Shown: positions 1 through 57,003, counted from the stretch's first letter. The stretch: DNA of 57,003 nt from a virus (IMGVR_UViG_3300040801_002155:1-57003), one strand, 5' to 3'. The notes: generated from the sequence alone by a model not told the origin. Translations and numbers: made by a program.

Positions 1-117
1 ACGCCATCCTTATTAATATATGTCTGGGGGTTTGGAATGAATATTTTCTTTCCAGTTTTCTTATCGATCTTATAATAATCTCTTCGATATGGAACTCGAT
101 ATTCAGCAGATGCTCTA
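1..117. repeat. Exact 117-bp terminal direct repeat, copy 1 (identical to 56887-57003). It is the end overlap of a circularly closed or permuted assembly; unique length 56,886 bp
   Basis: The string acgccatccttattaatatatgtc...cagcagatgctcta is present at both window ends. The repeat lies inside an open reading frame and joins it in phase. Confidence 0.9.
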
Positions 118-2012
118 GAAACAATGGTTGTTGCCCCTTTTCTTGGGCCACCCTGATATTTTGCTTTAAGTTGGGCTATGCCATTATCCTTATATGATTG
201 TTGATAATTGAGACCGTGTTTTTCTGCGTCGATAACAACCATGGAATGACGAACGGCTCTTGCTATCTCATCACTAGTTGGGGATGCTCCTTTGATTGTC
301 ATATCCGTAATAAGATTTGAAATCTTTCCCATTTCTGTATCTTTATTTGCTATTGTCATTCTCTTCATTCCCGGAACGGCGGGGTATGAAATTTTTGGAT
401 CGAAATCTGCCAGGCCCTTTAATGATGGGGCTATCTCTATTTTATTAGCATTATTTGGAATAACTAATACGGTGTCACCATCAAAATCTGCTCCTGACAG
501 CTTTTGCGCCACATCGGGATGAACTCCGACAGCATCTCTTGCATTTCCTAAAAGATTTCTCATCTGTGGGTCTTTATTATTTACTTTCAATTGCGGAATT
601 TCAAATATGCCACCATGAGGATGTCGTATAAGAACCACAGTTTCGCCATTGTTATAATTCGGAGCATATATCTCTGTCGGCTTCATATTGGGTGCGGGTA
701 ATAAAACATGATTTGCTTGCCGAGGCATTGAGGCGGCTTTTAAATCGACCGCGTCTGAATCGCAAGAATCTGCAAAAGTAAGTAATAATTTTTGCTTTAT
801 CGTTGGGTTTGTTAATGACTTGTATTCGTCAAATTCTTCTTGCCTTATTTTTACGGCCGTATCTAATTGCTCTTTTGCGAATTTTGGTTTTTGTTTAGAT
901 AGCATTTGAGAGGACAAAGTATTAGACCATTCAAGCCATGAACCTTCAATATTAGACGTTGGACCAGTACCAACAACATTAAGTGCTGATATATGATCTT
1001 TACCATCTTTTCCTTTATAATGATACTGACGAATATCAGTGCCGAAAGGATTATCTGGATTATCCTCCATAACTTTAAAAACAGTATCTTTTTTTTCTCC
1101 CATTATCGGAGTTCCCTTAGGTTTATTGGTATTATAACGAATATCAACGCCATCGGGAAGATCATCGGCATACATTGCCATTCCTTTTAAATAATGTGAA
1201 CCATCAACTCCGATTCTTACTTGAGCGTATCTGGCTTCTCCCAATGAAATATCAGGAACGCCTCGTCGAAGTTCTATAACACCATCCTTATCTTTTCCAC
1301 CATCTTCTGCAAAATTTACGACAATTCGTTTACTATCGATATTATTAATTGGTTCAAGACCAAGCCAATTTCTACCACCATCATTACTCCATTCGGATAT
1401 GGTACGAATTTTATCTCGATTTGGAAAAAGCTCTGTCTTATAATCCACATCATCTTTTGTTAAAACTTTGATATATGTTTTTTTTCCACTCGGTTGGGGC
1501 GCGGTTACATATTGTAACTTATATCCATCTTTCTCTAGTTCTTTAATCGCTAAGTCTAACCGATGCCTGGTTACATTGGCATGATACTCAGACCCAGCGC
1601 CAACATCAACATAAAGCTTTTCCTCAACCTGTCTTCTTAACATATCGGCCGTTTTTTCTGTTATCAATGCTCTTTCTTGGGTGGCCGGATTTAATAAACT
1701 TTTAACTGTTCTTGGATCTACTCCCAATCTTTCTGCAATTGCGGCATCCGAATATCCTTTATCCTTTAAACGAAGCGCGAAGGAAGCATCGGCTTGTCTT
1801 TGGGCCGATTTCTCGGCGGAAAGCTCAGCGCGAAGTTGAGTTGTAGACTCAAAACCAAGACCCTTTGCAATGTTTATTTCGCTTAATCCTTTTTCTTTTA
1901 GTTCATTAACCCGATGCCTTAATGATGGCTCACTTTGATATGGGTCTTCACCGCTTCCCCAAGGATATCTTCCAGATCTTCTAGGGGTACCATAATGTTT
2001 TAATTCGGCCAT
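1..2012 (-). CDS. Single-chain two-barrel RNA polymerase (YonO / RdRP-like, with beta-type and beta-prime-type DPBB motifs), codons 1-671. The ORF runs off the left edge and continues in phase at 56886->56226 (890 codons in total)
   Basis: ATG at 2012..2010, with GAGGAG about 7 nt upstream. Hand translation shows no stop down to position 1. Codons 507-513 read GADFDGD (nt 474-494). Codons 460-470 read VLIRHPHGGIF. Codons 276-294 read KGMAMYADDLPDGVDIRYN (nt 1131-1187). The track omits it only because no stop lies inside the window. Confidence 0.75.
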   Translation of the reverse strand, partial: MAELKHYGTPRRSGRYPWGSGEDPYQSEPSLRHRVNELKEKGLSEINIAKGLGFESTTQLRAELSAEKSAQRQADASFALRLKDKGYSDAAIAERLGVDPRTVKSLLNPATQERALITEKTADMLRRQVEEKLYVDVGAGSEYHANVTRHRLDLAIKELEKDGYKLQYVTAPQPSGKKTYIKVLTKDDVDYKTELFPNRDKIRTISEWSNDGGRNWLGLEPINNIDSKRIVVNFAEDGGKDKDGVIELRRGVPDISLGEARYAQVRIGVDGSHYLKGMAMYADDLPDGVDIRYNTNKPKGTPIMGEKKDTVFKVMEDNPDNPFGTDIRQYHYKGKDGKDHISALNVVGTGPTSNIEGSWLEWSNTLSSQMLSKQKPKFAKEQLDTAVKIRQEEFDEYKSLTNPTIKQKLLLTFADSCDSDAVDLKAASMPRQANHVLLPAPNMKPTEIYAPNYNNGETVVLIRHPHGGIFEIPQLKVNNKDPQMRNLLGNARDAVGVHPDVAQKLSGADFDGDTVLVIPNNANKIEIAPSLKGLADFDPKISYPAVPGMKRMTIANKDTEMGKISNLITDMTIKGASPTSDEIARAVRHSMVVIDAEKHGLNYQQSYKDNGIAQLKAKYQGGPRKGATTIVSRASAEYRVPYRRDYYKIDKKTGKKIFIPNPQTYINKDG

Positions 2013-7600: not shown

Positions 7601-8518
7601 TCCACTTGGCTTAACGTCGATAAGCCTTCTAGTTATGCCGGATTTACTATCAGTAATTTTGACTGGCTGGTTTGTCCCCATATATAAAAAGCAATTGATA
7701 GGCATGGAATATTGGGACTTATGTTTCTCATTAATTACAACCTCTTCGTGAGATATGATTGAATTCAAAGTACTGTTATCTAAGATTTTACTTAAATCGC
7801 CATCGTGTTGAATTGCGACTAATGGATTATTCTTAAATACTTCTGTACCAAATATGTTATTATTTCCAACCAATGCCTTTGCATTAAAAGCTATGTAATA
7901 TCCCTCTACTAATTTCTGAAGAATATTTAAAAATGTGGATTTACCACTTCCGGCCTCACCATATAAAACAATAAATTTTTGAATCTTCTTACTGTCACCA
8001 GTTAATACTGCTCCAATTGACCATTCTAATTTTTGTCTTTCTTCTTCATCATACAGTACGGACATTAAACGATCATATGCTTTGACCTTACCTTCTTCTA
8101 AATTGTATGGGAGATTATGTGTTGAATAACTGGATTTTGTTATGTTATCATTTGCGAATAGAATTTTATTATCAATTGGATAGTAATTATCTGGCATACT
8201 TCTAATAAACTTAATCCATTGATTCCAAGCGCCGGTTGAATAACTGGATAATGTCTTTACATTTACATGCGTCTCCTCTCCCAAATATTTATCTTTATAC
8301 CTAAATAATTCCTGGTCAACTAATCGAACTACTTCCATCTCATCCGTTAACCAAGACTTTTGTTCTTCATCCCATATTGCGTAAAAGGATCGACCGCGAA
8401 CCATAAGGTCCTTACTCTTACATACCTTAAAATCTGGATATATCTCTACCATTCCAGCGGGTCTGTTCTTACTTTTATTTATTGCTCGCTTTTCTATGAT
8501 TTCTAAGAAATCCATCAA
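4691..8518 (-). CDS. Fused replicase: SF3 (D5/P4-like) helicase + AEP-like primase domain + family-B DNA polymerase with 3'-5' exonuclease
   Basis: Walker A GEAGSGKS (aa 187-194) and SGITRRLIDV. VIDFD...SKSGAGIHLHY (aa 512-555). Exo I FFDVEV (711), Exo II GFNNRRYDNHIL, Exo III YCVNDV (849). PolB motif A DIASMHPTS (953), motif B KIALNSTYG (1020), motif C HIKTDS (1072). Confidence 0.85.
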   Translation of the reverse strand: MMDFLEIIEKRAINKSKNRPAGMVEIYPDFKVCKSKDLMVRGRSFYAIWDEEQKSWLTDEMEVVRLVDQELFRYKDKYLGEETHVNVKTLSSYSTGAWNQWIKFIRSMPDNYYPIDNKILFANDNITKSSYSTHNLPYNLEEGKVKAYDRLMSVLYDEEERQKLEWSIGAVLTGDSKKIQKFIVLYGEAGSGKSTFLNILQKLVEGYYIAFNAKALVGNNNIFGTEVFKNNPLVAIQHDGDLSKILDNSTLNSIISHEEVVINEKHKSQYSMPINCFLYMGTNQPVKITDSKSGITRRLIDVKPSGRHLSPKEYDHIMDEIEFELGAIAYKCIDIYKNLGKKHYDSYRPKEMMFQTNIVFNFVEENYFYFLQEIEYVQLSQVYKMYKEFCEENGNGYILPRHTFREELKAYFRDYADQKRIDGKARRSVYWNFKPESIDTNRAVIYSEPEDTEWELVLDQTDSIFDEECADRPAQYANDNGTPYLKWKNCKTKLSDLDTAKLHYVQLDENHIVIDFDLKNEKGEKDRDRNLKEASTWPPTYAEFSKSGAGIHLHYIYDGDAKTLSRIYSDGIEIKVSVGNSSLRRQLSLCNDLPIRHISSGLPLKKGGISMINSQTVKTETALRRLIVNNLNKEYHSATKPSIDFIKKILDDAYESDLIYDVSDMRGQVLTFAMNSTNQSDYCVSLIPQMKFASERESIPYTDYEIKDHVFFDVEVFPNLFIVVYKLAGDKYQPVKLINPTPIEIEDLLKFKLIGFNNRRYDNHILYARYIGYSNDQLYQLSQNIVSKAGNNYLFREAYNLSYTDVYDFSNKKQSLKKFGIELGLHHNEFAFPWDEPVPEDKWDLAAEYCVNDVTITEATFNDRKADWAARRILAELTGMTPNNSTNQLVTRLIFGNDKDPQLVYTDLSETFPGYEWKQIDGKKFHNMYRGDDVGFGGYVYSEPGMYANVALIDIASMHPTSLINMNYFGKYTKNYEQIKDARVAIKRGDKKAASEMFDGKLAPYLKDESIMEDLSYALKIALNSTYGLTSARFSNVMKHPKNVNNIVALRGALFMRTLQDEVQKRGYTVAHIKTDSIKIPNADQEIIDFCKEFAKKYDYEFEHEATYEKFCLVNDAVYIAKYSYSQHKDDVGKWTATGAQFQHPYIFKKLFTKEPIEFSDLCEVRTVTGDSKIYLDFDEDLPEGEHNLKFVGRAGEFCPIKPGLGGGILYRVKNDKYYAITGTKGYRWQEAEIVRDLDYKANIDFEYFNTLIDKAIETINKFGDFESFAADDIS

Positions 8519-13345: not shown

Positions 13346-13365
13346 TTTTACTCCTTTAATATAGT

Positions 13366-13394
13366 GGGTTCATTATACCCTTTGTTTTTATTGT
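13366..13394 (-). promoter_or_regulatory. Conserved promoter-like element (ACAATAAAAACAAAGGGTATAATGAACCC)
   Basis: One of at least 11 copies of the same ~29-nt block, each ending about 20 nt upstream of an RBS and ATG. Confidence 0.5.
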
Positions 13395-13397
13395 CTT

Positions 13398-18690: not shown

Positions 18691-19674
18691 CTATTCGGGC
18701 ATGTGATCAATGATTGGCCCATCTACATTAAAATCTAACAAGAATGGCTCACCGTTCCGAATGGCAGTATAACCAAGGGTTTGGTTCATCAAAGCATCAA
18801 CCTCCGGCCCAAAGGAGACATAATTATCTCCTTCTCCCTGCCAACGCCACCCAACGATCTGACCGGCCTTTGTACGAGGAAATCCTAATTCATAATAGAC
18901 ATCATTAAGATATAAATATCCATGTGCCTTAAGATGATCGTTTGCCCATATATTTTTAGCCTTTAAGGTAAGGGCATTATAATCGGGATGTGGCGACCAT
19001 TGACTACTACCAGTGTAGGTACCGTCTGTATTCCAGACCTGTTTTTCAAATAAACGGGCATACATATCAGTACCAAATCCATCTGGTAAAACCTGAATTT
19101 CTTTCTTTACCTTTTTGGTTTTCCCATTCTCATCGGTAACCTTTTCTGTTAGGGTTTGGTATTCTGTACCATAACGGAAATGGAAATCCCGATCTGAACC
19201 AAGTTCATCGATTACTCGACTGCGGTACTCAGTAAATGCCTTATCGATTACACGATAGGCAGCGACTAACGCAATATTCCTTTTTCGAAGGATCTTCTGG
19301 CCGCCAACAATTGCCACTGCAGATCCAAGGCCCAGCATAACTATCGGACCATATAGAACCACAAAATCTCGGGCAGTTTGAGCATAGACTAATACCGTAT
19401 CTTGCTTTTCATTTTCTTCAGAATAATCTGGAACAACTTCTAATGCGTTTTTTACATCCGCCATCTTTAATTGATGGTTGGTTAAAATTTGTTCCGCCTT
19501 TGTTTCCGCTTTGGCTAATTTATATGCGGCAAATCCAAGACCAAATATACCAGCTATAGTCAAAATCTCTGGAGAGTATTCTTTTACTTTAAATGCTGCC
19601 ATACTTCCAAATTTTACAAGTTTACCTTTCATGCACGTTAATTTATTTGTGCAAGTTGTCAATTCAGTACTCAT
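18691..19674 (-). CDS. Two-TM hypothetical protein, paralog of 26341..27066
   Basis: Shares with the paralog: TM-loop-TM, A(A/L)xxxYxxxxxxxxEYRxxV(I/V)(D/E)xxG, and LND(V/F)YYELG(F/L). Confidence 0.6.
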   Translation of the reverse strand: MSTELTTCTNKLTCMKGKLVKFGSMAAFKVKEYSPEILTIAGIFGLGFAAYKLAKAETKAEQILTNHQLKMADVKNALEVVPDYSEENEKQDTVLVYAQTARDFVVLYGPIVMLGLGSAVAIVGGQKILRKRNIALVAAYRVIDKAFTEYRSRVIDELGSDRDFHFRYGTEYQTLTEKVTDENGKTKKVKKEIQVLPDGFGTDMYARLFEKQVWNTDGTYTGSSQWSPHPDYNALTLKAKNIWANDHLKAHGYLYLNDVYYELGFPRTKAGQIVGWRWQGEGDNYVSFGPEVDALMNQTLGYTAIRNGEPFLLDFNVDGPIIDHMPE

Positions 19675-19766
19675 TATAGATCTCCTTTTTACTTTAGTAA
19701 TTTAAAAAAATATAAGAATAGTATTCTTTAATCATTTACCAGATCTGGCAAATGGAATACTACTCT

Positions 19767-19792
19767 ATTATAGGGTTTGTAATTTTTGTAGG
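19767..19792 (-). promoter_or_regulatory. Variant of the conserved promoter-like element
   Basis: Minus strand reads CCTACAAAAATTACAAACCCTATAAT, upstream of 18691..19674. Confidence 0.35.
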
Positions 19793-24185: not shown

Positions 24186-24206
24186 TTCAACTCCTTAGAA
24201 TATAAT

Positions 24207-24235
24207 GGTTTCATTATAGGAGTTGTTTTTGTTGT
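24207..24235 (-). promoter_or_regulatory. Conserved promoter-like element (ACAACAAAAACAACTCCTATAATGAAACC)
   Basis: Copy of the ~29-nt block, upstream of 24009..24185. Confidence 0.5.
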
Positions 24236-24249
24236 CAAAACGTCTTGAG

Positions 24250-25009: not shown

Positions 25010-25034
25010 TTCTAATCTCCTTTACAAATAGTGT

Positions 25035-25063
25035 GGTTTCATTATACCCTTTGTTTTTATTGT
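25035..25063 (-). promoter_or_regulatory. Conserved promoter-like element (ACAATAAAAACAAAGGGTATAATGAAACC)
   Basis: Copy of the ~29-nt block, upstream of 24719..25009. Confidence 0.5.
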
Positions 25064-25064
25064 A

Positions 25065-25298
25065 CTATCCCTTGTATAATATTTTTCCAACAAAATTTGC
25101 AACAGCGGTTGTAGAACTGATCGCACAATATCCTGCAATTACCTTATGCCAGCTTTTAATTTCGGCCGCTCTCTGTTTATCAAAATTTTCATCCGGCTTG
25201 TAAACCGAGTTCAAACCTTCAGAAACTGCATTGAATGTAAGAATTGATGTTCCGACAATCGCCGTTATTAAAATGTATCCTTTCATTTGCTCTTGCAT
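25065..25298 (-). CDS. Small membrane protein (77 aa)
   Basis: Two hydrophobic segments. Confidence 0.5.
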   Translation of the reverse strand: MQEQMKGYILITAIVGTSILTFNAVSEGLNSVYKPDENFDKQRAAEIKSWHKVIAGYCAISSTTAVANFVGKILYKG

Positions 25299-25328
25299 TT
25301 TTACTCCTTTTCAGATAGTACTGGTGAA

Positions 25329-25904
25329 TTAATATCTTTTTTTTATTGGATCTGGTATTTCGGCACATTTTTCTGCATTAATTGGCCAATCATGATATTT
25401 TAATTGATTAAATATATCCAGAGGATTTGTTAATACCTCTGGATACCACACTTCATCATAAGTAATACTATGTTCTTTGAAGAATGAAATATCTAAAAGA
25501 GCAGTTGTTAATAGTCGCATAAGTTCATCATCGTCTAATTCATTGCCCATATGAATACGAACACGTTTTGCAGATTCAAATACTTCATGAATATCTCTTC
25601 GCATCATTACCGTTTTAAAGACAACATTTTTAGGCATTGTCCTTAACTCATCTACTTTATGAAGGAAAAGTTTTACTAATTGTCCTTCATACATAGCAGG
25701 AAAGTTCTTTTTATGCCGAGCCTTATAACCAAGCTCATAATATCCGTTTCTATTTGGTATATATCCATTTATAATTTTATCTCGTTTTGTATTTGATTCT
25801 TGATATGCTCCTTTCATTCCTCCAGCAATTAGAGATTCCATCATCATTGACGTTCCGCTACGAACCAGACCAGATACTACATAAACAATTTTTTGCTTCA
25901 TCAT
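25329..25904 (-). CDS. Sulfotransferase-like P-loop protein
   Basis: VVSGLVRSGTSMM resembles the 5'-PSB loop of PAPS-dependent sulfotransferases, and VMMRRDIHEVFES resembles the 3'-PB RDPxD motif. Judged from memory only. Confidence 0.4.
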   Translation of the reverse strand: MMKQKIVYVVSGLVRSGTSMMMESLIAGGMKGAYQESNTKRDKIINGYIPNRNGYYELGYKARHKKNFPAMYEGQLVKLFLHKVDELRTMPKNVVFKTVMMRRDIHEVFESAKRVRIHMGNELDDDELMRLLTTALLDISFFKEHSITYDEVWYPEVLTNPLDIFNQLKYHDWPINAEKCAEIPDPIKKRY

Positions 25905-26302: not shown

Positions 26303-26319
26303 CTTTACTCCTTTCTAGT

Positions 26320-26347
26320 GGTTTCATTATAAGGCATGTTTTATTTG
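26320..26347 (-). promoter_or_regulatory. Degenerate copy of the conserved promoter-like element
   Basis: Minus strand reads CAAATAAAACATGCCTTATAATGAAACC. It overlaps the 3' end of 26341..27066. Confidence 0.3.
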
Positions 26348-27066
26348 CGGGGCGTGACCTCATAACTTAAAACCAGACAAGGTTTTCCATCTTTAGTTAA
26401 CTGACTTGAGAAATTTATTTGTATTAGGCCATCATCCACATTAAATCCTAAATCATAGCCCAAATCTGTGGGGTCTAATCCCAGTTCATAATAAAAATCA
26501 TTTAGTGAAATAAATCCTTCAAGCATCAGTTCACGATTTGTTTCGTTTATTTTTTGTCTAATCTTTTCAATATCCGATTGAAAATATCTTCCACTTAAAG
26601 CATCAAGGCATAATACATCCCCAGATCCAGTAATTATCACATGTGTTTGAGGATTTGCAAATACTTTATCTTGATCAATCGCATCACGAAGTACTTGCTC
26701 TTTCTTTTCTCCTATTGTTTCTACAACTTTTTGACGATATTCATTTAGTGTAGACTGGGTTATAGAATATAATCCAACAAGGGCCGCCTTTTTCCTTTCA
26801 TTAATCGTATTGGCCCCAAGTATTGCAACCGTCGTTATGATTACACTAGCCGCTGTTGGAATATAAAATTTCCATGCAACTTTGATTTTCTCCTTCGTTG
26901 TTTCGCACTCATATTTTCTTATGGCTTCTACTGCCTTCGGGGTTGCGTCAATCGCAAAGACCGTTGAAGTAAATAAACCTGTAATGGCTATCCCCGTAAG
27001 GATATGAGTGCTGTTTTGTTCGACAAATCTTCCAAGTCCCTTCATGCTTTGTTTTATACTAAACAT
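26341..27066 (-). CDS. Two-TM hypothetical protein, paralog of 18691..19674
   Basis: Shared architecture and the SLNDFYYELGL motif. Confidence 0.6.
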   Translation of the reverse strand: MFSIKQSMKGLGRFVEQNSTHILTGIAITGLFTSTVFAIDATPKAVEAIRKYECETTKEKIKVAWKFYIPTAASVIITTVAILGANTINERKKAALVGLYSITQSTLNEYRQKVVETIGEKKEQVLRDAIDQDKVFANPQTHVIITGSGDVLCLDALSGRYFQSDIEKIRQKINETNRELMLEGFISLNDFYYELGLDPTDLGYDLGFNVDDGLIQINFSSQLTKDGKPCLVLSYEVTPRK

Positions 27067-27182: not shown

Positions 27183-27500
27183 TTATTGTTTAATACCGCA
27201 AAATTCCCCCAAATATCGCTCTTTTTCGCCAGTGAGATAGCGAAAACGGCGAATATCAAAATCGCTAATTGGAGTATAGTGTTGTCCCTTAATCAGCATT
27301 GTGCTGAACACGAGCTGATTGTCTGACATATGACGATCTCCACTATAAGTAGAAGCATTGCCATTGGTCTCGTTGTGCAAACGAATAATCTCATTCGCAG
27401 CGCTAATAACCCCCTGAATGGCCTCGTTAACAGTAAGACCACAATACTGAATCATGTGAATGACCCAAATAAAAATAAAATTTACGATATCGCCGGGCAT
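27183..27500 (-). CDS. Hypothetical protein (105 aa)
   Basis: Minus-strand ORF with an RBS. Confidence 0.55.
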   Translation of the reverse strand: MPGDIVNFIFIWVIHMIQYCGLTVNEAIQGVISAANEIIRLHNETNGNASTYSGDRHMSDNQLVFSTMLIKGQHYTPISDFDIRRFRYLTGEKERYLGEFCGIKQ

Positions 27501-27598
27501 GTTTTTCTCCTTTCAAGAGAGTTAAAAATTTGATAAATGTGAAAGAAATAAAAGGCTAAGTTTTAACTTCTCTTAGTCTTTTATTTTTGAAATATTAT

Positions 27599-27751
27599 TT
27601 AACGGTTAAATTGTTCCGCAAATGTATCAATCTTTTCTCTTTGATTTTTGATACGTTTATCAATCTTACGACTTATAAGAATTGCTCTTACAGCCGAAAC
27701 AATTGATATCATAAAAAAAATTCCTGATATAACTAATACTATAGCAAACAT
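27599..27751 (-). CDS. Mini membrane protein A (50 aa) of the cassette array
   Basis: Hand translation: MFAIVLVISGIFFMISIVSAVRAILISRKIDKRIKNQREKIDTFAEQFNR. RBS AAAGGAGATTAAAAATG. Confidence 0.55.
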   Translation of the reverse strand: MFAIVLVISGIFFMISIVSAVRAILISRKIDKRIKNQREKIDTFAEQFNR

Positions 27752-27774
27752 TTTTAATCTCCTTTTAATAGTAT

Positions 27775-27850
27775 GGTTTCATTATAGGAGTTGTTTTTAT
27801 TGTAGGAGAGAAAGAAATAAACCGATGTTTTGGTTTACTTCTTTTGAAAC
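27775..27850 (-). promoter_or_regulatory. Terminator-plus-promoter cassette, copy 1
   Basis: Minus strand reads GTTTCAAAAGAAGTAAACCAAAACATCGGTTTATTTCTTTCTCTCCTACAATAAAAACAACTCCTATAATGAAACC. It combines a 10-bp hairpin (one G.U pair, on the minus strand only) with the promoter block. Confidence 0.55.
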
Positions 27851-27866
27851 TTAATCTTCGGGCTTT

Positions 27867-28049
27867 TCATTTTTTTGAATAAAATTCCTCTCGGATCATT
27901 CCTGCCATTCCAAGTATACCGAAGAGCAGATACATGACTCCAAAAATTGGATGATATACATCATCAAATTTGAAGAAGAACAAATACGTTCCCCAAGCAA
28001 CTACGGAAGTGTACAAGAATATCTGAATATAAAAAATTATTCTACTCAT
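27867..28049 (-). CDS. Mini membrane protein B (60 aa)
   Basis: Tracked ORF MSRIIFYIQIFLYTSVVAWGTYLFFF...; two TM segments. Confidence 0.55.
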   Translation of the reverse strand: MSRIIFYIQIFLYTSVVAWGTYLFFFKFDDVYHPIFGVMYLLFGILGMAGMIREEFYSKK

Positions 28050-28070
28050 TTTTAAACTCCTTTTAATAGT

Positions 28071-28146
28071 GGTTTCATTATAGGAGTTGTTTTTATTGTA
28101 GGAGAGAAAGAAATAAACCGATGTTTTGGTTTACTTCTTTTGAAAT
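28071..28146 (-). promoter_or_regulatory. Terminator-plus-promoter cassette, copy 2
   Basis: Near-identical to copy 1. Confidence 0.55.
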
Positions 28147-28152
28147 TTAACT

Positions 28153-28305
28153 TTATGGTTTATTGATTGTAATCTTAACGATTCCCAATTCTCGAATCAT
28201 TAGTGCAATAAATACTGCTACGATGATCACTTTCCCAAAAGGGATCACCGAAACAATAATCGATACAATAACAAGTGTGAATAGGGCTTTAATTAACCTC
28301 TTCAT
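28153..28305 (-). CDS. Mini membrane protein C (50 aa)
   Basis: Hand translation: MKRLIKALFTLVIVSIIVSVIPFGKVIIVAVFIALMIRELGIVKITINKP. Confidence 0.55.
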   Translation of the reverse strand: MKRLIKALFTLVIVSIIVSVIPFGKVIIVAVFIALMIRELGIVKITINKP

Positions 28306-28328
28306 TTCAATTCTCCTTTTAATAGTAT

Positions 28329-28409
28329 GGTTTCATTATACCCTTTGTTTTTTTTGTAGGTAAGGAGAGAAAGAAATAAACCGATGTTTTGGTTTACTTC
28401 TTTTGAAAC
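28329..28409 (-). promoter_or_regulatory. Terminator-plus-promoter cassette, copy 3 (AGGG variant)
   Basis: Same hairpin. The promoter block reads ACAAAAAAAACAAAGGGTATAATGAAACC. Confidence 0.55.
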
Positions 28410-28589
28410 TCAATTGAATATAAAATCGAGCGACTCTGCATATTTATCTGAAAGTTCCTCAGGCTCTACTCCTGCAATTAGAGCAAGTATAGTGAAGCTT
28501 ACAATATATAAAAATACTGCAAGCGACCCAATAATTGATTTAATTACAACTAATATAACCATGAGAACACGTAAAATAAATTGTTTCAT
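28410..28589 (-). CDS. Mini membrane protein D (59 aa)
   Basis: Hand translation: MKQFILRVLMVILVVIKSIIGSLAVFLYIVSFTILALIAGVEPEELSDKYAESLDFIFN. Confidence 0.55.
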   Translation of the reverse strand: MKQFILRVLMVILVVIKSIIGSLAVFLYIVSFTILALIAGVEPEELSDKYAESLDFIFN

Positions 28590-28612
28590 CTTAATCTCCT
28601 TTAATAGTTAAT

Positions 28613-28693
28613 GGTTTCATTATACCCTTTGTTTTTTTTGTAGGTAAGGAGAGAAAGAAATAAACCGATGTTTTGGTTTACTTCTTTTGAAAC
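28613..28693 (-). promoter_or_regulatory. Terminator-plus-promoter cassette, copy 4
   Basis: Identical to copy 3 over the part I compared. Confidence 0.55.
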
Positions 28694-28861
28694 TTAATCT
28701 TCATCTAAGAATGTCTTCATGCTCTTTTCTAAATTTTTCATTGTTACTTGTGCAATGTATGGCGCGATGATTGGGGACAATAGTAGTTGAACTACCGCCC
28801 AAATAGCTTGCGCTAATACGAGTGCAAAAATAATCAATACGAAATCTACAAATGTAAACAT
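28694..28861 (-). CDS. Mini membrane protein E (55 aa)
   Basis: Hand translation: MFTFVDFVLIIFALVLAQAIWAVVQLLLSPIIAPYIAQVTMKNLEKSMKTFLDED. Confidence 0.55.
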   Translation of the reverse strand: MFTFVDFVLIIFALVLAQAIWAVVQLLLSPIIAPYIAQVTMKNLEKSMKTFLDED

Positions 28862-28885
28862 TTTTAATCTCCTTTAATAGTTAAT

Positions 28886-28972
28886 GGTTTCATTATACCC
28901 TTTGTTTTTTTTGTAGGTCTAATAAAGGAGAGAAAGAAATAAACCGATGTTTTGGTTTACTTCTTTTGAAAC
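28886..28972 (-). promoter_or_regulatory. Terminator-plus-promoter cassette, copy 5
   Basis: Same as copy 3, with a short insertion (tctaataaa) between the hairpin and the promoter. Confidence 0.55.
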
Positions 28973-28974
28973 TT

Positions 28975-29157
28975 TTAATCTTTGGATTTGTCATTTAGAA
29001 CGCTCGCGGCTGCGAATAATACTAGCAGCCCTGTAATGTAGAACGTCCCTACCGTATAGAGGCTATCCTGACTTGCGCCAGTAAACACCAATACGGTGAG
29101 GAACACCCCACCCAACAAGGCAAATAATAAATATCCGATTTCCTTTAGTACTTTCAT
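28975..29157 (-). CDS. Mini membrane protein F (60 aa)
   Basis: MKVLKEIGYLLFALLGGVFLTVLVF... The tracked 69-aa form starts at the ATG inside the promoter motif (TATAATGAAACC) and is probably too long. Confidence 0.55.
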   Translation of the reverse strand: MKVLKEIGYLLFALLGGVFLTVLVFTGASQDSLYTVGTFYITGLLVLFAAASVLNDKSKD

Positions 29158-29176
29158 TTCAACTCCTTTTAATAGT

Positions 29177-29245
29177 GGTTTCATTATAGGAGTTGTTTTT
29201 GTTGTAAGAAAAATAAAAGCCGATGTTATGGCTTCTATTTTTTAC
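29177..29245 (-). promoter_or_regulatory. Terminator-plus-promoter cassette, copy 6 (different hairpin, AAGCC/GGCTT)
   Basis: Promoter block conserved. The hairpin sequence has diverged, but the structure and the T-run are retained. Confidence 0.5.
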
Positions 29246-29248
29246 CAG

Positions 29249-29398
29249 TTAGTTAATAGTTGATAGTACATTTAAAATTTCTAGATAATTATTTTTGACT
29301 GCTTGTCCTAATAAGGTAGCAACAATAATAACAATTAATGCAACTACCATAAATAAGAAAAAACGTTCACAAATCAAATCTACAAATTTTGTATTCAT
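29249..29398 (-). CDS. Mini membrane protein G (49 aa)
   Basis: Hand translation: MNTKFVDLICERFFLFMVVALIVIIVATLLGQAVKNNYLEILNVLSTIN. Confidence 0.5.
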   Translation of the reverse strand: MNTKFVDLICERFFLFMVVALIVIIVATLLGQAVKNNYLEILNVLSTIN

Positions 29399-29419
29399 TT
29401 CAACTCCTTAAAATATAGT

Positions 29420-29448
29420 GGTTTCATTATAGGAGTTGTTTTTATTGT
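29420..29448 (-). promoter_or_regulatory. Conserved promoter-like element, first copy after the end of the late operon
   Basis: Minus strand reads TTACAATAAAAACAACTCCTATAATGAAACC. Confidence 0.5.
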
Positions 29449-29484
29449 AAGAAAAAAAATATACGGTACGTTAATTCTGCAACC

Positions 29485-29520
29485 AGTAGAGGCGTCCTAA
29501 TAATCTAAGACACCTCTACT
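29485..29520 (-). terminator. Long hairpin ending the late (structural) transcription unit
   Basis: Outer stem AGTAGAGG/CCTCTACT plus an inner stem of about 6 bp, starting 19 nt after the stop of 29539..30366. A T8 run follows only about 25 nt downstream. Confidence 0.45.
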
Positions 29521-41426: not shown

Positions 41427-43313
41427 CTATGCAGATGCGCCAGAAGGACTTGCATCAGCGGGTTCTGCTTTCTCGGCCCAAATAGCCAATGCAGAATGAG
41501 GCACTGTTAACGCGCCAGAAATACGAGTTTCAATCAGGTATTTATGCTGGTTGAAGTCGATATCGAAGTCATCAAACATCGTGATCGCCCCACCCTTATC
41601 GGCACCAATAGAATAATCAACCATGTTAACAATAACGCCAACGAGTTCGCTATAATCGACATCATCAGTATCGGAATTAACAACTGTCTCTAATACAGGA
41701 ACCTCAACAATTTCTTTAACGCGAAGTGCAGCGGCAAGATCGGCAAGTGTATTATAAATACGTCGACCAGTGCTATCCTTCAAAAGAAGCATGTCGGCAA
41801 CAATATCGGCATTAGTGAACAACGTTGGATTACCAGCACCACGATAGTCTTTTCGAGCACGAACAATACCATCAATAATTTCAGAAGTTGTGGCATCTGT
41901 TGCGGGGGATGTGGCTTCAATAACTGTGTGAACGGTATAAAGATCATCATCTTTCGCAATTGGACGAATTTTGGTTTCGCTAATCTTGTCATCACTGGCA
42001 ACTGAGCGACCATCACCAATTATAACAGCGCGAGCCAATTCCTCTTCGAGCATCATACGCATTTCAGAACGAAGCCAAAGAACAATATCGAAATCTGTAA
42101 TGTCGAGCATATCATCACGATCAATTTTCTGCTTCTTATAAACAGTTTGAGGATCAGTGGTTCGTTTCAACAAAGCAAAGACCTGTTCGACCTTTTCATT
42201 GCCCTTGACATAACCTAAGGCGCGAGCCTGGTCTTCTGTCAGATCTGCAACAAGGGTCTTTACACGAGTAAATGGAATTTTCTTGGCGGCGCCAAATACT
42301 TTGCTAACCCAATCCATCTTTCGAGTGAGCATATTGGGGGTTGCAGATGATGCCTTATAATCGGGGAATAAATACCCGATATCAGTGATTGAATGCTTCA
42401 AACTATCCGCGTCTTTAGGACCGATATAAGCCTCATAAGCTTCTGCCATTGAATCGAAACCATGGGCTAAGAAAGCATTCTTTAAGGTTGACTGCGATTT
42501 TACAGCGGTGGTAAAAATTTCACGAAGTCCATCGCGGGTTAAGGTTTTGTGCATAATTGTATTATCTCCTTCGGTTTTTGGTTGTGATTGATCAAAAATG
42601 TTATTTTTCATAATAGGTTCTCCTGGGGTAATATCTGATTGTTTAATTTCTTCGGTGTCATCATTGCCTTCATCTTCTGAATCTTTGTCGGTCATATCTT
42701 CGGCAGTATCAAGAGCTTTACCGATCATTGCATAAACTACTGTTTTTTGTTTATCAGTAAATGTTGCAAACACATCGGCAACGGTCTCCTCTTCATTATC
42801 TTCTTTGTCGTCTTCTTGCTGCGTTGGATCGGCATGAAAAATTTCATCAATTTGTTCATTTGCGGATAATACTGCTTCGGATTCTTCTTGCGTAATCGAA
42901 CCATCAGCGTGTTCAAAAGACAAATTATCAATAAATGCGCCCTGATTTGCTCCGGCAATAACTAAACTTACTTCACGAATAACGCCATGGATAACATTTT
43001 TTGCCTTTTCTACTAATGAATTTGCATAAATTGAAAGTGCCTTAATGTCTCCATGTTTGATTAATTCTTTTGCAGCTTGAGCTTTTTCAGTTCCATTAAA
43101 GGAACAATATGCATATACTCCATCTGGACGATTTTCCAGTAATGCATGCCCTAAAATATTTTCAGGCTCATTATGCAAATGTTGCCACACTAACGGAACA
43201 ATTTGCCCGTCGTTATCAAGAAATGCATCTTGCTGGATTGTTCTTCCATCGCTGCATTTCAAATTGGTTTTAGTGGCATAACCACTAAAATCATACTTCA
43301 TTTTTTCAGTCAT
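41427..43313 (-). CDS. Fusion of prohead protease (HK97/S78-like), an acidic scaffold-like linker and the major capsid protein
   Basis: N-terminus VPLVWQHLH...IKALSIYAN...VIREVSLVIAGANQGAFI (S78-like). Acidic aa ~165-225. The C-terminal ~380 aa are capsid-like (ELARAVIIGDGR...). Confidence 0.65.
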   Translation of the reverse strand: MTEKMKYDFSGYATKTNLKCSDGRTIQQDAFLDNDGQIVPLVWQHLHNEPENILGHALLENRPDGVYAYCSFNGTEKAQAAKELIKHGDIKALSIYANSLVEKAKNVIHGVIREVSLVIAGANQGAFIDNLSFEHADGSITQEESEAVLSANEQIDEIFHADPTQQEDDKEDNEEETVADVFATFTDKQKTVVYAMIGKALDTAEDMTDKDSEDEGNDDTEEIKQSDITPGEPIMKNNIFDQSQPKTEGDNTIMHKTLTRDGLREIFTTAVKSQSTLKNAFLAHGFDSMAEAYEAYIGPKDADSLKHSITDIGYLFPDYKASSATPNMLTRKMDWVSKVFGAAKKIPFTRVKTLVADLTEDQARALGYVKGNEKVEQVFALLKRTTDPQTVYKKQKIDRDDMLDITDFDIVLWLRSEMRMMLEEELARAVIIGDGRSVASDDKISETKIRPIAKDDDLYTVHTVIEATSPATDATTSEIIDGIVRARKDYRGAGNPTLFTNADIVADMLLLKDSTGRRIYNTLADLAAALRVKEIVEVPVLETVVNSDTDDVDYSELVGVIVNMVDYSIGADKGGAITMFDDFDIDFNQHKYLIETRISGALTVPHSALAIWAEKAEPADASPSGASA

Positions 43314-56225: not shown

Positions 56226-57003
56226 TTAATCATCTCCTTTATTATTAATTGCATCCATTAGTGTTGTAATTGGAAGCCCAAGTAATTTAGCTACTTCGGC
56301 TTGTGTATATCCTCTATTAAATAGAACCAGGGCTTTTGAAATCTTGGCATTGGATACTATCGGTTTTTCTCTGGGGGTTGCGTATTGCTTAATCAAATCT
56401 AAGTCGGTATTATTTAGAATCTGTTTTAAGAAATTATTTGAAACGGCTCCGGCTTGGATTGCTTCCCATTCTTTTTCTGTTATTGGGATTTGTTGCTTCT
56501 TAGCTCCGACTCTATGCCGGGCTTCTACTATTGCCATGCCTTTCATTTTTTTTAGTTGCTTTTTTGACAGCTCGGGATTGGCTTGCTTTTGTGCCTGGTA
56601 CTTACTATCTGCAAGTAATAATGCTTGCCTTTCTAATGGCTTATTACTTTTAGCAAGGGCAAGTTTAGACTTCAATGCGGCTACTTCTTTATCATACGTT
56701 TTATATGCAGAGGGGGAATAATTTAGATTTGGAGTATTTACGGCAAGTTTTCTTGCTTCATCTGCCATGGCTTTCATTGAATTTGCATAGTTTGCATATA
56801 CGGTTTCCATTACAGTGCCGGAACTTAAAGTAAATGCATCATCGGTCTCATACATTTGAGTCGATTTTGTTTTCCGATCGACGGTTACGCCATCCTTATT
56901 AATATATGTCTGGGGGTTTGGAATGAATATTTTCTTTCCAGTTTTCTTATCGATCTTATAATAATCTCTTCGATATGGAACTCGATATTCAGCAGATGCT
57001 CTA
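56226..57003 (-). CDS. C-terminal part (codons ~633-890) of the YonO/RdRP-like RNA polymerase that begins at 2012. Positions 56887-57003 duplicate 1-117
   Basis: The frame is open from the right edge to the stop at 56226-56228 and in phase with ATG 2012: (2012+56886-56855)/3 = 681. The tracked 209-aa ORF starts at internal Met682. C-terminal HTH-like YTQAEVAKLLGLPITTLMDAI. Confidence 0.75.
   Translation of the reverse strand, partial: RASAEYRVPYRRDYYKIDKKTGKKIFIPNPQTYINKDGVTVDRKTKSTQMYETDDAFTLSSGTVMETVYANYANSMKAMADEARKLAVNTPNLNYSPSAYKTYDKEVAALKSKLALAKSNKPLERQALLLADSKYQAQKQANPELSKKQLKKMKGMAIVEARHRVGAKKQQIPITEKEWEAIQAGAVSNNFLKQILNNTDLDLIKQYATPREKPIVSNAKISKALVLFNRGYTQAEVAKLLGLPITTLMDAINNKGDD
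56887..57003. repeat. Exact 117-bp terminal direct repeat, copy 2
   Basis: Identical to 1-117. Confidence 0.9.

Follow-up and report, generated by a model that had tools for sequence, protein, structure and literature searches.

By what route does a phage come to hold a row of small, mutually dissimilar genes between stretches of almost the same intergenic DNA? The question is raised by the viral sequence IMGVR_UViG_3300040801_002155:1-57003, a stretch of 57,003 nucleotides (nt) which as a whole we call the window. Within about 1.85 kb of its minus strand (29398-27599) it carries seven open reading frames (ORFs) of 49-60 amino acids (aa), here named m1 to m7, each preceded by a promoter-like block and followed by a hairpin. 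We put the probability at roughly 0.7 that this region is a hyperplastic accessory-gene array, built of self-contained expression units that would be shuffled at the cassettes between them. An earlier inspection of the DNA without database searches, in the following the sequence-only reading, had compared the region with the promoter-early stem-loop (PeSL) cassettes of T4-type myoviruses (Arbiol et al. 2010, PMC2839356; Comeau et al. 2014, PMC4122927). This comparison gained support from relatives, in which cassette-bounded indels and replacements resembling the ORF192 case were found.

In minus-strand order the tail module is followed by the seven mini-ORFs, whose number, size and position had been given correctly by the sequence-only reading. 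They are listed here with their transmembrane (TM) helices and, where conspicuous, the G+C fraction at third codon positions (GC3); L009 is an independent contig treated below.

29249..29398, minus strand: m1, 49 aa; one TM helix; GC3 0.14; exact copy in L009
28975..29157, minus strand: m2, 60 aa (69 aa from an upstream ATG); two TM helices; GC3 0.49, a compositional outlier
28694..28861, minus strand: m3, 55 aa; N-terminal 36 residues hydrophobic; acidic tail
28410..28589, minus strand: m4, 59 aa; two TM helices; unit absent from L009
28153..28305, minus strand: m5, 50 aa; two TM helices
27867..28049, minus strand: m6, 60 aa; two hydrophobic segments
27599..27751, minus strand: m7, 50 aa; one N-terminal TM helix and a basic tail; GC3 0.16

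The array has a period of 243-296 nt, and the ORFs occupy the whole space between the cassettes. An own ribosome-binding site for each gene and one or two hydrophobic helices for each product had also been claimed, and both were borne out: in 7/7 genes the ATG lies 6-8 nt downstream of an (A)AAGGAG Shine-Dalgarno (SD) sequence, and Kyte-Doolittle hydrophobic stretches occur in all seven products. Five of the seven mini-ORFs are shorter than common length cut-offs. The array brings together, in little space, seven uncharacterised mini membrane proteins of a phage, which belong to a class that annotation systematically overlooks.

Before every mini-ORF stands a 32-nt block of the form (T/C)TACAAnAAAAACAA-(CTCC/AGGG)-TATAATGAAACCA, which occurs in two variants:

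29419..29450, minus strand: P1 (TTACAATAAAAACAACTCC-TATAATGAAACCA), variant A
29176..29207, minus strand: P2, variant A
28885..28916, minus strand: P3, variant B (spacer AGGG)
28612..28643, minus strand: P4, variant B; left flank of the unit that L009 lacks
28328..28359, minus strand: P5, variant B; mosaic, with a 5'-untranslated region (5'-UTR) variant otherwise seen with variant A
28070..28101, minus strand: P6, variant A
27774..27805, minus strand: P7, variant A

The 13-mer TATAATGAAACCA has 10 exact copies in the window, all of them on the minus strand. Allowing up to 2 mismatches gave 13 matches, where 4.7 were expected and 0/100 shuffles reached 13. The genes are followed by hairpins:

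29209..29242, minus strand: hairpin after m1, a diverged homologue with the same AACATC loop and one compensatory A-T to G-C stem pair; -13.8 kcal/mol
28933..28966, minus strand: main hairpin, copy 1 (AAAGAAGTAAACC-AAAACATC-GGTTTATTTCTTT); 13-bp stem, then a CT-rich tail
28654..28687, minus strand: main hairpin, copy 2
28370..28403, minus strand: main hairpin, copy 3
28107..28140, minus strand: main hairpin, copy 4
27811..27844, minus strand: main hairpin, copy 5
27546..27586, no strand assigned: terminal hairpin of another type (AAAAGACTAAG...CTTAGCCTTTT), with homologues among the hairpins of the relative L020

Five of them are identical (AAAGAAGTAAACC-N8-GGTTTATTTCTTT), with a 13-bp stem and a folding energy of -14.0 kcal/mol (z -7.2); the hairpin 22-mer occurs in 5 exact copies in the window against 0 expected. 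The statement that every gene has a downstream hairpin holds for all seven, but the identical type stands at five junctions only, the hairpin of m1 being diverged and that of m7 of another type. Likewise, a promoter copy precedes all seven genes as stated, but the genes are not bracketed throughout, since none follows the m7 hairpin and the junction before m1 shares the promoter only. A G.U stem pair had been read as evidence for the coding strand. The pair is present on the gene strand but carries little weight, the folding energies being -14.0 kcal/mol there and -13.5 kcal/mol on the opposite strand. For the hairpin after m7 the opposite strand gives by far the stronger fold (-19.8 vs -9.6 kcal/mol). 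This hairpin, of the CTAAG...CTTAG type, recurs with compensatory changes beside promoters in L020 (~7685-7725 and ~7940-7985).

Six junctions combine hairpin, promoter and SD within 91-115 nt. This measured length of the intergenic spacers replaces the 76-87 nt given at first. That the cassettes are nearly identical was confirmed, with 84-99% identity overall: the intergenic (IG) cassettes IG2, IG3 and IG4 agree at 97-99% and IG5 and IG6 at 98%, while between these two groups the identity is 84-88%. The longest identical stretch between neighbouring cassettes measures 83 nt (IG3 vs IG4). Within the cassettes the sub-blocks form a mosaic, in that the 5'-UTR variant ATACTATT is found with both spacer variants and all four combinations of spacer and UTR are present.

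Variation bounded by the cassettes, which the sequence-only reading had proposed to look for in related genomes, was found both for the m4 unit in L009 and for the gp36 slot of the Gordonia phages Tanis, Gravy and Avazak. L009, an independent Joint Genome Institute (JGI) contig of 3,403 nt, agrees with the window at every aligned base over 3.4 kb (0 mismatches) but has a precise loss of 284 bp, corresponding to m4 plus one cassette. The crossover lies inside the 83 nt that are identical between the cassettes flanking m4. Since metagenome assembly could go astray at a repeat of 83 nt, clonal isolates were examined. Except for a 323-nt indel comprising gp36 and a cassette, Tanis and Gravy agree at 99.8%. 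In Tanis, gp36 (76 aa) sits between two 70-nt cassettes of hairpin and promoter. Gravy has no gp36 and a single chimeric cassette, the left part of which is Tanis copy 1 and the right part copy 2, with the crossover within 43 identical nt. In Avazak an unrelated 88-aa gene fills the gp36 slot between the same cassettes.

Lactococcus phage P1046 (L057, MN552143.1) carries at 25123-25412 two tandem 145-nt units that are 96% identical. Each consists of a promoter, an SD, a 21-aa single-TM ORF (MLDIIIVLLIGILVGKALKKK) and a predicted terminator, at a place where GenBank has no gene annotated. In Streptomyces phage LibertyBell (L058) the hairpin copies at 2364 and 2682 are 100% identical over 47 nt. 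Judged from the genome comparisons, single units have been deleted, replaced and duplicated at cassettes, with a documented case of each. The number of genes between the tail module and the gene for the membrane protein DUF6353 is 0 in L007, 2 in L020-L025, 8 in the window, ~10 in L006 and ~14 in Tanis. In all members examined this stretch is a series of small genes with gaps between them, and many of these genes encode membrane proteins; a dense, regular array of the seven-unit type was seen, among the loci compared, in the window and L009 only.

In the explanation that we favour, one unit comprises a family-specific promoter, a leader of ~20 nt with a strong SD, a membrane-protein ORF of 49-60 codons and a hairpin with a pyrimidine-rich tail. 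Each mini-gene would be made as its own monocistronic transcript of ~230-270 nt. The hairpins would terminate or attenuate transcription and insulate the units from each other as well as from read-through out of the late tail operon. Hairpin and next promoter together form the 91-115-nt cassette, whose near identity between neighbours provides portable homology for recombination. Unequal or inter-genome crossovers within cassettes then delete, duplicate, insert or replace units while the expression signals stay intact; at the sequence level this step is demonstrated by the m4 indel, the gp36 slot of Tanis, Gravy and Avazak and the tandem unit of P1046. Recombination could be carried out by the phage's own machinery, the window encoding a 5'-3' exonuclease, a phage single-stranded-DNA-binding protein, a Cas4-like exonuclease and a ligase. 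The promoter would be read by a YonO-like polymerase or by the host sigma-A RNA polymerase (RNAP) together with a phage factor.

Several observations weigh against this explanation. The hairpin is AT-rich (3 G-C pairs) with an interrupted U-tract, and a consensus terminator scan flags 1/5 copies. The array promoters have no -35 element at canonical spacing. The evidence for turnover that is specific to the window consists of a single indel between metagenome assemblies, where the 83-nt repeat could have caused an assembly skip. Finally, the gp45 insertion of Avazak has no flanking cassette in Tanis, so that not every indel is cassette-bounded.

Two minor features of the cassettes may be described here. 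The 5' edge of a cassette includes AAGATTAA (28694-28702 and 28975-28983), the TAA of which is the stop codon of m2 and m3, so that the cassette provides their final codons (-KD-stop, -ED-stop). After m6, GAAGATTAA (27852-27860) is non-coding and lies 6 nt beyond the TGA stop of m6 itself; it looks like the footprint of a cassette that was copied together with the end of another gene. The second feature concerns read-through RNA, for example across the cassettes at 28590-28693 and 28050-28152 on the minus strand. In such RNA an anti-SD AACTCC in the promoter spacer can pair with the SD of the following gene (GGAGTT; m1, m2, m6 and the 24218 promoter). An alternative anti-SD, CTCTCCTT after the hairpin, pairs with AAGGAGA, and L007 (~12210) has a matching pair ATCTCC/GGAGAT. 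The anti-SD could mute read-through translation or be simple linkage, and transcripts from the own promoter would be free of it. Most promoters in the family are without anti-SD pairing, and we therefore record it as an observation and not as a mechanism.

What do the units carry? As stated at the outset by the sequence-only reading, the seven proteins are without obvious similarity, the best pairwise z being ~3.2-3.4 among 21 pairs. Coding DNA was compared by a codon-shuffle test, the global DNA identity measure being unreliable; 2/21 pairs had p<=0.05 against the codon-shuffled null, i.e. there is no similarity. GC3 ranges from 0.14 to 0.49 across the mini-genes vs 0.24-0.30 in core genes (chi-square p=2.7e-4), with very low values for m1, m4 and m7 (0.14-0.22) and m2 being GC-richer than the genome. 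The lack of mutual similarity together with the heterogeneity of GC3 argues for mini-genes that differ in origin or age and are not recent paralogues.

These data bear on the possibility that one unit was tandemly duplicated seven times and that its coding parts diverged under diversifying selection, without any foreign cargo, while purifying selection and gene conversion held the cassettes alike. All seven products are indeed short and hydrophobic, m1 and m3 share a position-matched FVD motif (z=3.2), and the family does duplicate whole units in tandem, as seen in P1046 (145-nt units, 96%). We nevertheless consider this history unlikely. Neither protein nor DNA retains any detectable residual similarity, there are no intermediate pairs, and divergence in situ does not predict a GC3 spread from 0.14 to 0.49 (p=2.7e-4). 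Unrelated genes occupy one slot in Tanis and Avazak. Moreover, there is no conservation of the hairpin sequence among relatives, so the five identical copies would reflect recent copying and not selection.

When the concatenated m1-m7 were run with HMMER exhaustively against 1.84 billion representative proteins, two relatives only (P0006 and P0007) were returned apart from self, both encoded on one 9,219-nt JGI contig. P0006 shares 35/60 residues with m2 (59%; 43/60 positives) and P0007 31/50 with m5 (62%; 44/50 positives), in both cases at the same length and gap-free, the changes being mostly conservative. Because of such gap-free, conservative relatives m2 and m5 are probably real genes under protein-level constraint. 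Among 5.8 billion proteins m2 had two hits and no relative beyond P0006. By these searches of 1.84 and 5.8 billion proteins the mini-proteins classify as ORFans.

Complete ORFan status in both searches is also what a cradle of de novo genes would give, in which some mini-genes were born in AT-rich spacers between expression-ready cassettes, T-rich codons yielding hydrophobic ORFs. The very low GC3 of m1, m4 and m7 (0.14-0.22) and the tiny 21-aa TM ORF in the P1046 units fit this picture. It is at odds with m2 and m5, which have been kept in a ~60%-identical relative, the substitutions being conservative, and would thus be older, constrained genes, and with the composition of m2, GC-richer than that of the genome. 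Birth in place is, in our judgement, distinctly improbable.

With regard to function, no family of PHROG, Pfam (holin families included) or PADLOC matches any of the seven mini-proteins, and Rfam has no family in the array region at E<=1 save a chance CrcZ match. CRISPR-like, known-RNA and defence-system readings of the array found no support in the scans. From position, dispensability, ORFan status and membrane targeting we infer that the cargo most likely consists of membrane-acting accessory proteins, individually dispensable and perhaps serving exclusion, takeover or counter-defence. Small TM proteins directly downstream of tail genes could also be holins and antiholins, as in many Gram-positive siphoviruses. 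Endolysin, holin and sigma factor were not recognisable by Pfam/PHROGs among the larger window ORFs scanned, and in Arthrobacter phage Lewando and Streptomyces phage LibertyBell the small-gene region is immediately preceded by an annotated holin. However, for none of the mini-proteins did a Pfam/PHROGs holin family appear at E<=1, no endolysin was recognised nearby, seven unrelated holins would be unparsimonious, and m4 is dispensable in L009. The same promoter class precedes non-lysis small genes further downstream, and cluster DJ phages have lysin A and holin in the left arm, before the terminase. A lysis module is on these grounds very improbable; to judge from cluster DJ synteny, some of the unannotated ORFs between polymerase and terminase (~49-56 kb) may be the lysis genes.

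That the array is an artefact, either a misassembly joining alternative alleles or a set of spurious ORFs between repeats that act as protein-binding or structural DNA, we find barely credible. The window was assembled from metagenome data, assemblers can go wrong at repeats of 83-104 nt, and AT-rich DNA readily yields short hydrophobic ORFs. But two other JGI contigs of separate assembly, L009 and L010, have the gene order of the array at 100% identity, the latter (a third assembly) reproducing m6-m7 and the next gene. In addition, the architecture recurs in clonal isolate genomes of the family, all 7/7 ORFs combine an ATG with an AAGGAG 6-8 nt away and span the interval from cassette to cassette, and m2 and m5 are conserved as proteins. 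A type I toxin-antitoxin-like cluster of hydrophobic peptide toxins under antisense RNAs that use bidirectional hairpins is just as hard to believe: the products resemble type I toxins in size and hydrophobicity and the hairpins fold on both strands, that of m7 better on the opposite one, but all conserved signals lie in gene orientation, antisense promoter-like sites number 20 vs 20.0 expected, and the chance CrcZ match is the only Rfam family at E<=1.

Returning to the shuffled expression units, we ask what kind of promoter they carry. Further copies of the block lie outside the array:

26319..26350, minus strand: promoter copy before a 106-aa phrog_5818 gene; keeps the CGCAA upstream element of the family
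25034..25065, minus strand: promoter copy before a 96-aa gene
24206..24237, minus strand: promoter copy before a 58-aa gene
19763..19791, minus strand: diverged promoter copy upstream of the second DUF6353 gene
13365..13396, minus strand: promoter copy (TATAATGAACCCA)

The block is a genome-wide and family-wide motif and not specific to the array. The twelve copies of the window can be aligned to those of L002-L007, L020, Tanis, Lewando, LibertyBell, Cheesy, P1046 and the Faecalibacterium phage FP_oengus. Across the family the architecture consists of a CGCA-like pentamer, an A-rich stretch, then ACA, N4-5, a TATAAT-like hexamer and GA(A/G)AC, with an SD within ~25 nt. The letters vary by lineage: nnACAA..TATAATGAAACCA in the window, where 10/11 well-aligned copies have changed the upstream pentamer from TCGCA to nnACA, TCGCAG..TATAATGAGACCCC in Gordonia, TCACA..TATAGTAGAAAG in Lactococcus and ACGCGAAAAA..CTTTATGGAAG in Faecalibacterium phages. 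Metagenomic low-GC relatives (28 IMG/VR contigs) have TCGCAAnAAAAACA-N5-TATAATGAAAC, Tanis has 11 copies of TCGCAGnnAATACAC-N4-TATAATGAGACCCC and P1046 has TCACAnGTTTTACAC-N4-TATAGTAGAAAG; similar forms occur in the Arthrobacter phages Lewando and Cheesy and in LibertyBell. FP_oengus (L056, MG711463.1) carries between 2280 and 8280 12 copies of ACGCGAAAAAnnCA-N5-CTTTATGGAAG, each 25-30 nt upstream of a small gene, as well as six copies of a conserved predicted terminator hairpin. Hairpins with T-runs adjoin the motif in L020, Tanis, LibertyBell, P1046 and FP_oengus, some of them near-identical within a genome.

In the window the -10 hexamer TATAAT is perfect. The only -35-like hexamer is found 13-14 nt away and none at 17 nt, the upstream element being centred near -29, and the conservation of the motif runs into the first transcribed bases. 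A sigma-70 consensus scan finds 1/7 array promoters, with total matches at chance level. Going by these features, the array promoter is not canonical sigma-70.

Identical 117 nt at 1-117 and 56887-57003 show the assembly of the window to be complete and either circular or terminally redundant, with 56,886 unique bp. Its ends are spanned by a single gene, the candidate reader of this promoter class:

56226..57003, minus strand: C-terminal part of the polymerase gene, which spans the assembly ends
1..2010 (approximate end), minus strand: N-terminal part of the same gene

The product, a single chain of ~890 aa, has a DFDGD catalytic motif, a phrog_4291 match and a weak Pfam RdRP match. It carries helix-turn-helix (HTH) domains at both ends, including a sigma-70 region-4-like HTH at residues 79-107. 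Full-length homologues of 38-52% identity stand at the genome end of ~250 deposited siphoviruses infecting Arthrobacter, Gordonia, Streptomyces, Rhodococcus, Microbacterium, Curtobacterium, Lactococcus (P1046) and Faecalibacterium (FP_oengus). Most of these ~250 homologues are annotated merely as 'helix-turn-helix DNA-binding protein'. A fusion of major capsid protein and protease and the DUF6353 membrane protein have the same distribution as the polymerase, and the window, like the family, encodes the ~890-aa HTH-flanked DxDGD polymerase and DUF6353 in synteny. This siphovirus supergroup has already been recognised and the protein proposed as a YonO-like RNA polymerase, in a preprint that makes no mention of promoters, intergenic motifs or terminators (bioRxiv 10.1101/842583). 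As far as the alignments tell, the array promoter belongs to a lineage-specific motif family of siphoviruses with YonO-like RNAP that spans two phyla.

We tentatively suggest, at somewhat less than even odds, that the cassette promoter is the cognate promoter of the YonO-like HTH-flanked polymerase and is not read by host sigma-A. The letters change by lineage while the architecture is kept, as co-evolution with the reader would give. In favour are also the upstream element near -29 instead of -35, the sigma-region-4-like HTH and the deviating hexamers of two phages: in 12/12 FP_oengus copies the hexamer is without the -11 A of sigma-70-type -10 elements, and some LibertyBell copies have TGTAGG or TATAAC with the downstream GAGACCCC kept. 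The perfect TATAAT of most lineages speaks for host sigma-A, and the absence of the motif from the structural operon also counts against a phage polymerase, as does the single late promoter, of unknown sequence, of SPbeta YonO (PMC5467207). For YonO-type polymerases in general no promoter definition was found in the literature searched.

Phage RNA polymerases of the T7/T3/SP6 type have lineage-specific promoter sets. The present family is similar in that a motif of ~30 nt is conserved beyond the -10 hexamer, its variants track the phage lineage, and the same polymerase is present in every lineage. It differs in that most lineages have a perfect sigma-70-type TATAAT and in that polymerase and motif are linked by co-occurrence. 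The motif is a concrete candidate promoter for YonO-like phage RNA polymerases; if such a polymerase does read it, the cassettes would constitute a phage-autonomous, host-independent 'plug-and-play' system for expressing and shuffling ORFan genes across two phyla.

How does the array compare with known systems? With PeSL it shares a composite intergenic element of promoter and stem-loop, conserved over ~100 bp, which flanks ORFans in hyperplastic regions. It also shares the single chimeric cassette at indel or replacement junctions, window/L009 and Tanis/Gravy/Avazak mirroring the PeSL-defining case of ORF192 in RB49 and phi1, and the location of crossovers between hairpin, -10 and SD. There is, however, no sequence homology, and the genomes here are ~55-60 kb siphoviruses with a YonO-like RNAP. 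The hairpin stands upstream of the promoter and is AT-rich instead of GGGG/CCCC, and the promoter is not of sigma-70 consensus, having a family-specific element near -29. The cargo consists uniformly of tiny membrane proteins in an unusually regular array. By this comparison the system of the window is an analogue of PeSL and neither a member nor a homologue; no PeSL-like report for siphoviruses was found in the literature covered by the searches.

The closest precedent for the motif is found in cluster DJ Gordonia phages, where an intergenic motif of 43-50 nt in 5 copies was read as a sigma-70 -10 promoter (Vardy, PMC9671010; Conley, PMC10868162). It belongs to the same family (TCGCA...ACA-N4/5-TATAATGA(A/G)AC) and lies in the region between tail and replication genes, beside predicted terminators and many small TM or signal-peptide genes. 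The cluster DJ announcements tied the motif neither to recombination nor to a phage polymerase nor to relatives in another phylum. The window differs by its lineage-specific upstream element (nnACA for TCGCA) and its denser, homogenised array of seven units. Motif and polymerase have thus each been noticed before, separately, and the combination of motif, terminators and small membrane genes is known for cluster DJ. In the literature searched we found no description of cassette-mediated turnover, of a family-wide lineage-specific motif, of the co-occurrence with the polymerase or of such mini-gene arrays.

Integron arrays likewise contain small, unrelated, individually mobile ORFs in tandem, separated by repeated recombination sites. 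They differ from the array in that no integrase or attC-like sites were seen in the window and that each unit has its own promoter instead of a shared Pc; the homology here is an ordinary direct repeat, such as general recombination could use. Morons, by the usual view, are acquired through illegitimate recombination; they are typically expressed from the prophage and have flanks that are not conserved repeats. Lambdoid morons (discussed in PMC2839356) resemble the units as single accessory genes with own predicted promoter and terminator between core genes, absent from relatives and sometimes of deviant composition (cf. m2, GC3 0.49). The regulatory flanks of the units are, in contrast, repeated homology, and the window has no sign of lysogeny: no integrase was found among the window proteins scanned, and the promoter motif is absent from 185,579 representative genomes, which gives neither a host hint nor prophage copies.

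The gain, loss and exchange of small ORFans in phages is a long-standing question, and the PeSL model is among the few concrete mechanisms proposed. The same logic is met here in an unrelated, widespread siphovirus supergroup with ~250 deposited genomes from Actinobacteria and Firmicutes hosts and many more in metagenomes, such that terminator-plus-promoter cassettes as portable homology appear to be a convergent, general solution and not a T4 peculiarity. Since cultured members carry natural variants at one slot (Tanis, Gravy, Avazak) and a tandem duplication (P1046), the system is testable.

Regarding the wider setting, the window has 36% GC and essentially all genes on the minus strand. A Firmicutes host is plausible from this GC content, the AAGGAG sequences and the nearest cultured low-GC relatives, which infect Lactococcus and Faecalibacterium. 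The DNA of the array region had no match among deposited phages, near or distant, and IMG/VR scans with the hairpin 22-mer and the flanking 275-aa protein as queries returned nothing. A metagenome scan with the window-type promoter gave single-copy matches only, two of which are short relatives. Upstream of the array lie:

37613-33189, minus strand: tape measure, tail module
33179-32622, minus strand: Dit, tail module
31579-30383, minus strand: tail protein, tail module
30366-29539, minus strand: 275-aa ORF of the tail module, last gene before the array
29485..29520, minus strand: strong hairpin after the 275-aa gene, with a 15-bp stem; -25.6 kcal/mol, z -4.4

This last hairpin is predicted to close the structural operon upstream of the array. 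The major capsid protein, fused to a prohead protease (41427-43313, 628 aa), is 47-49% identical to the fusion of actinophage relatives. The 105-aa gene after the array (27183-27500) is not present in L007 or L020, lacks a promoter copy of the array class and, with a GC3 of 0.41, exceeds the genome norm. Its leader (27501-27598; CTCTTGAAAGGAGA) matches the conserved promoter leader of the higher-GC L006 and of Arthrobacter phages. The two DUF6353 paralogues (26341-27066, 241 aa; 18691-19674, 327 aa) have N-terminal TM segments, and the nearest DUF6353 relatives reach 75% and 65% identity; DUF6353 has thousands of homologues in phages and in records of gut Clostridia, and its synteny is kept across the whole supergroup.

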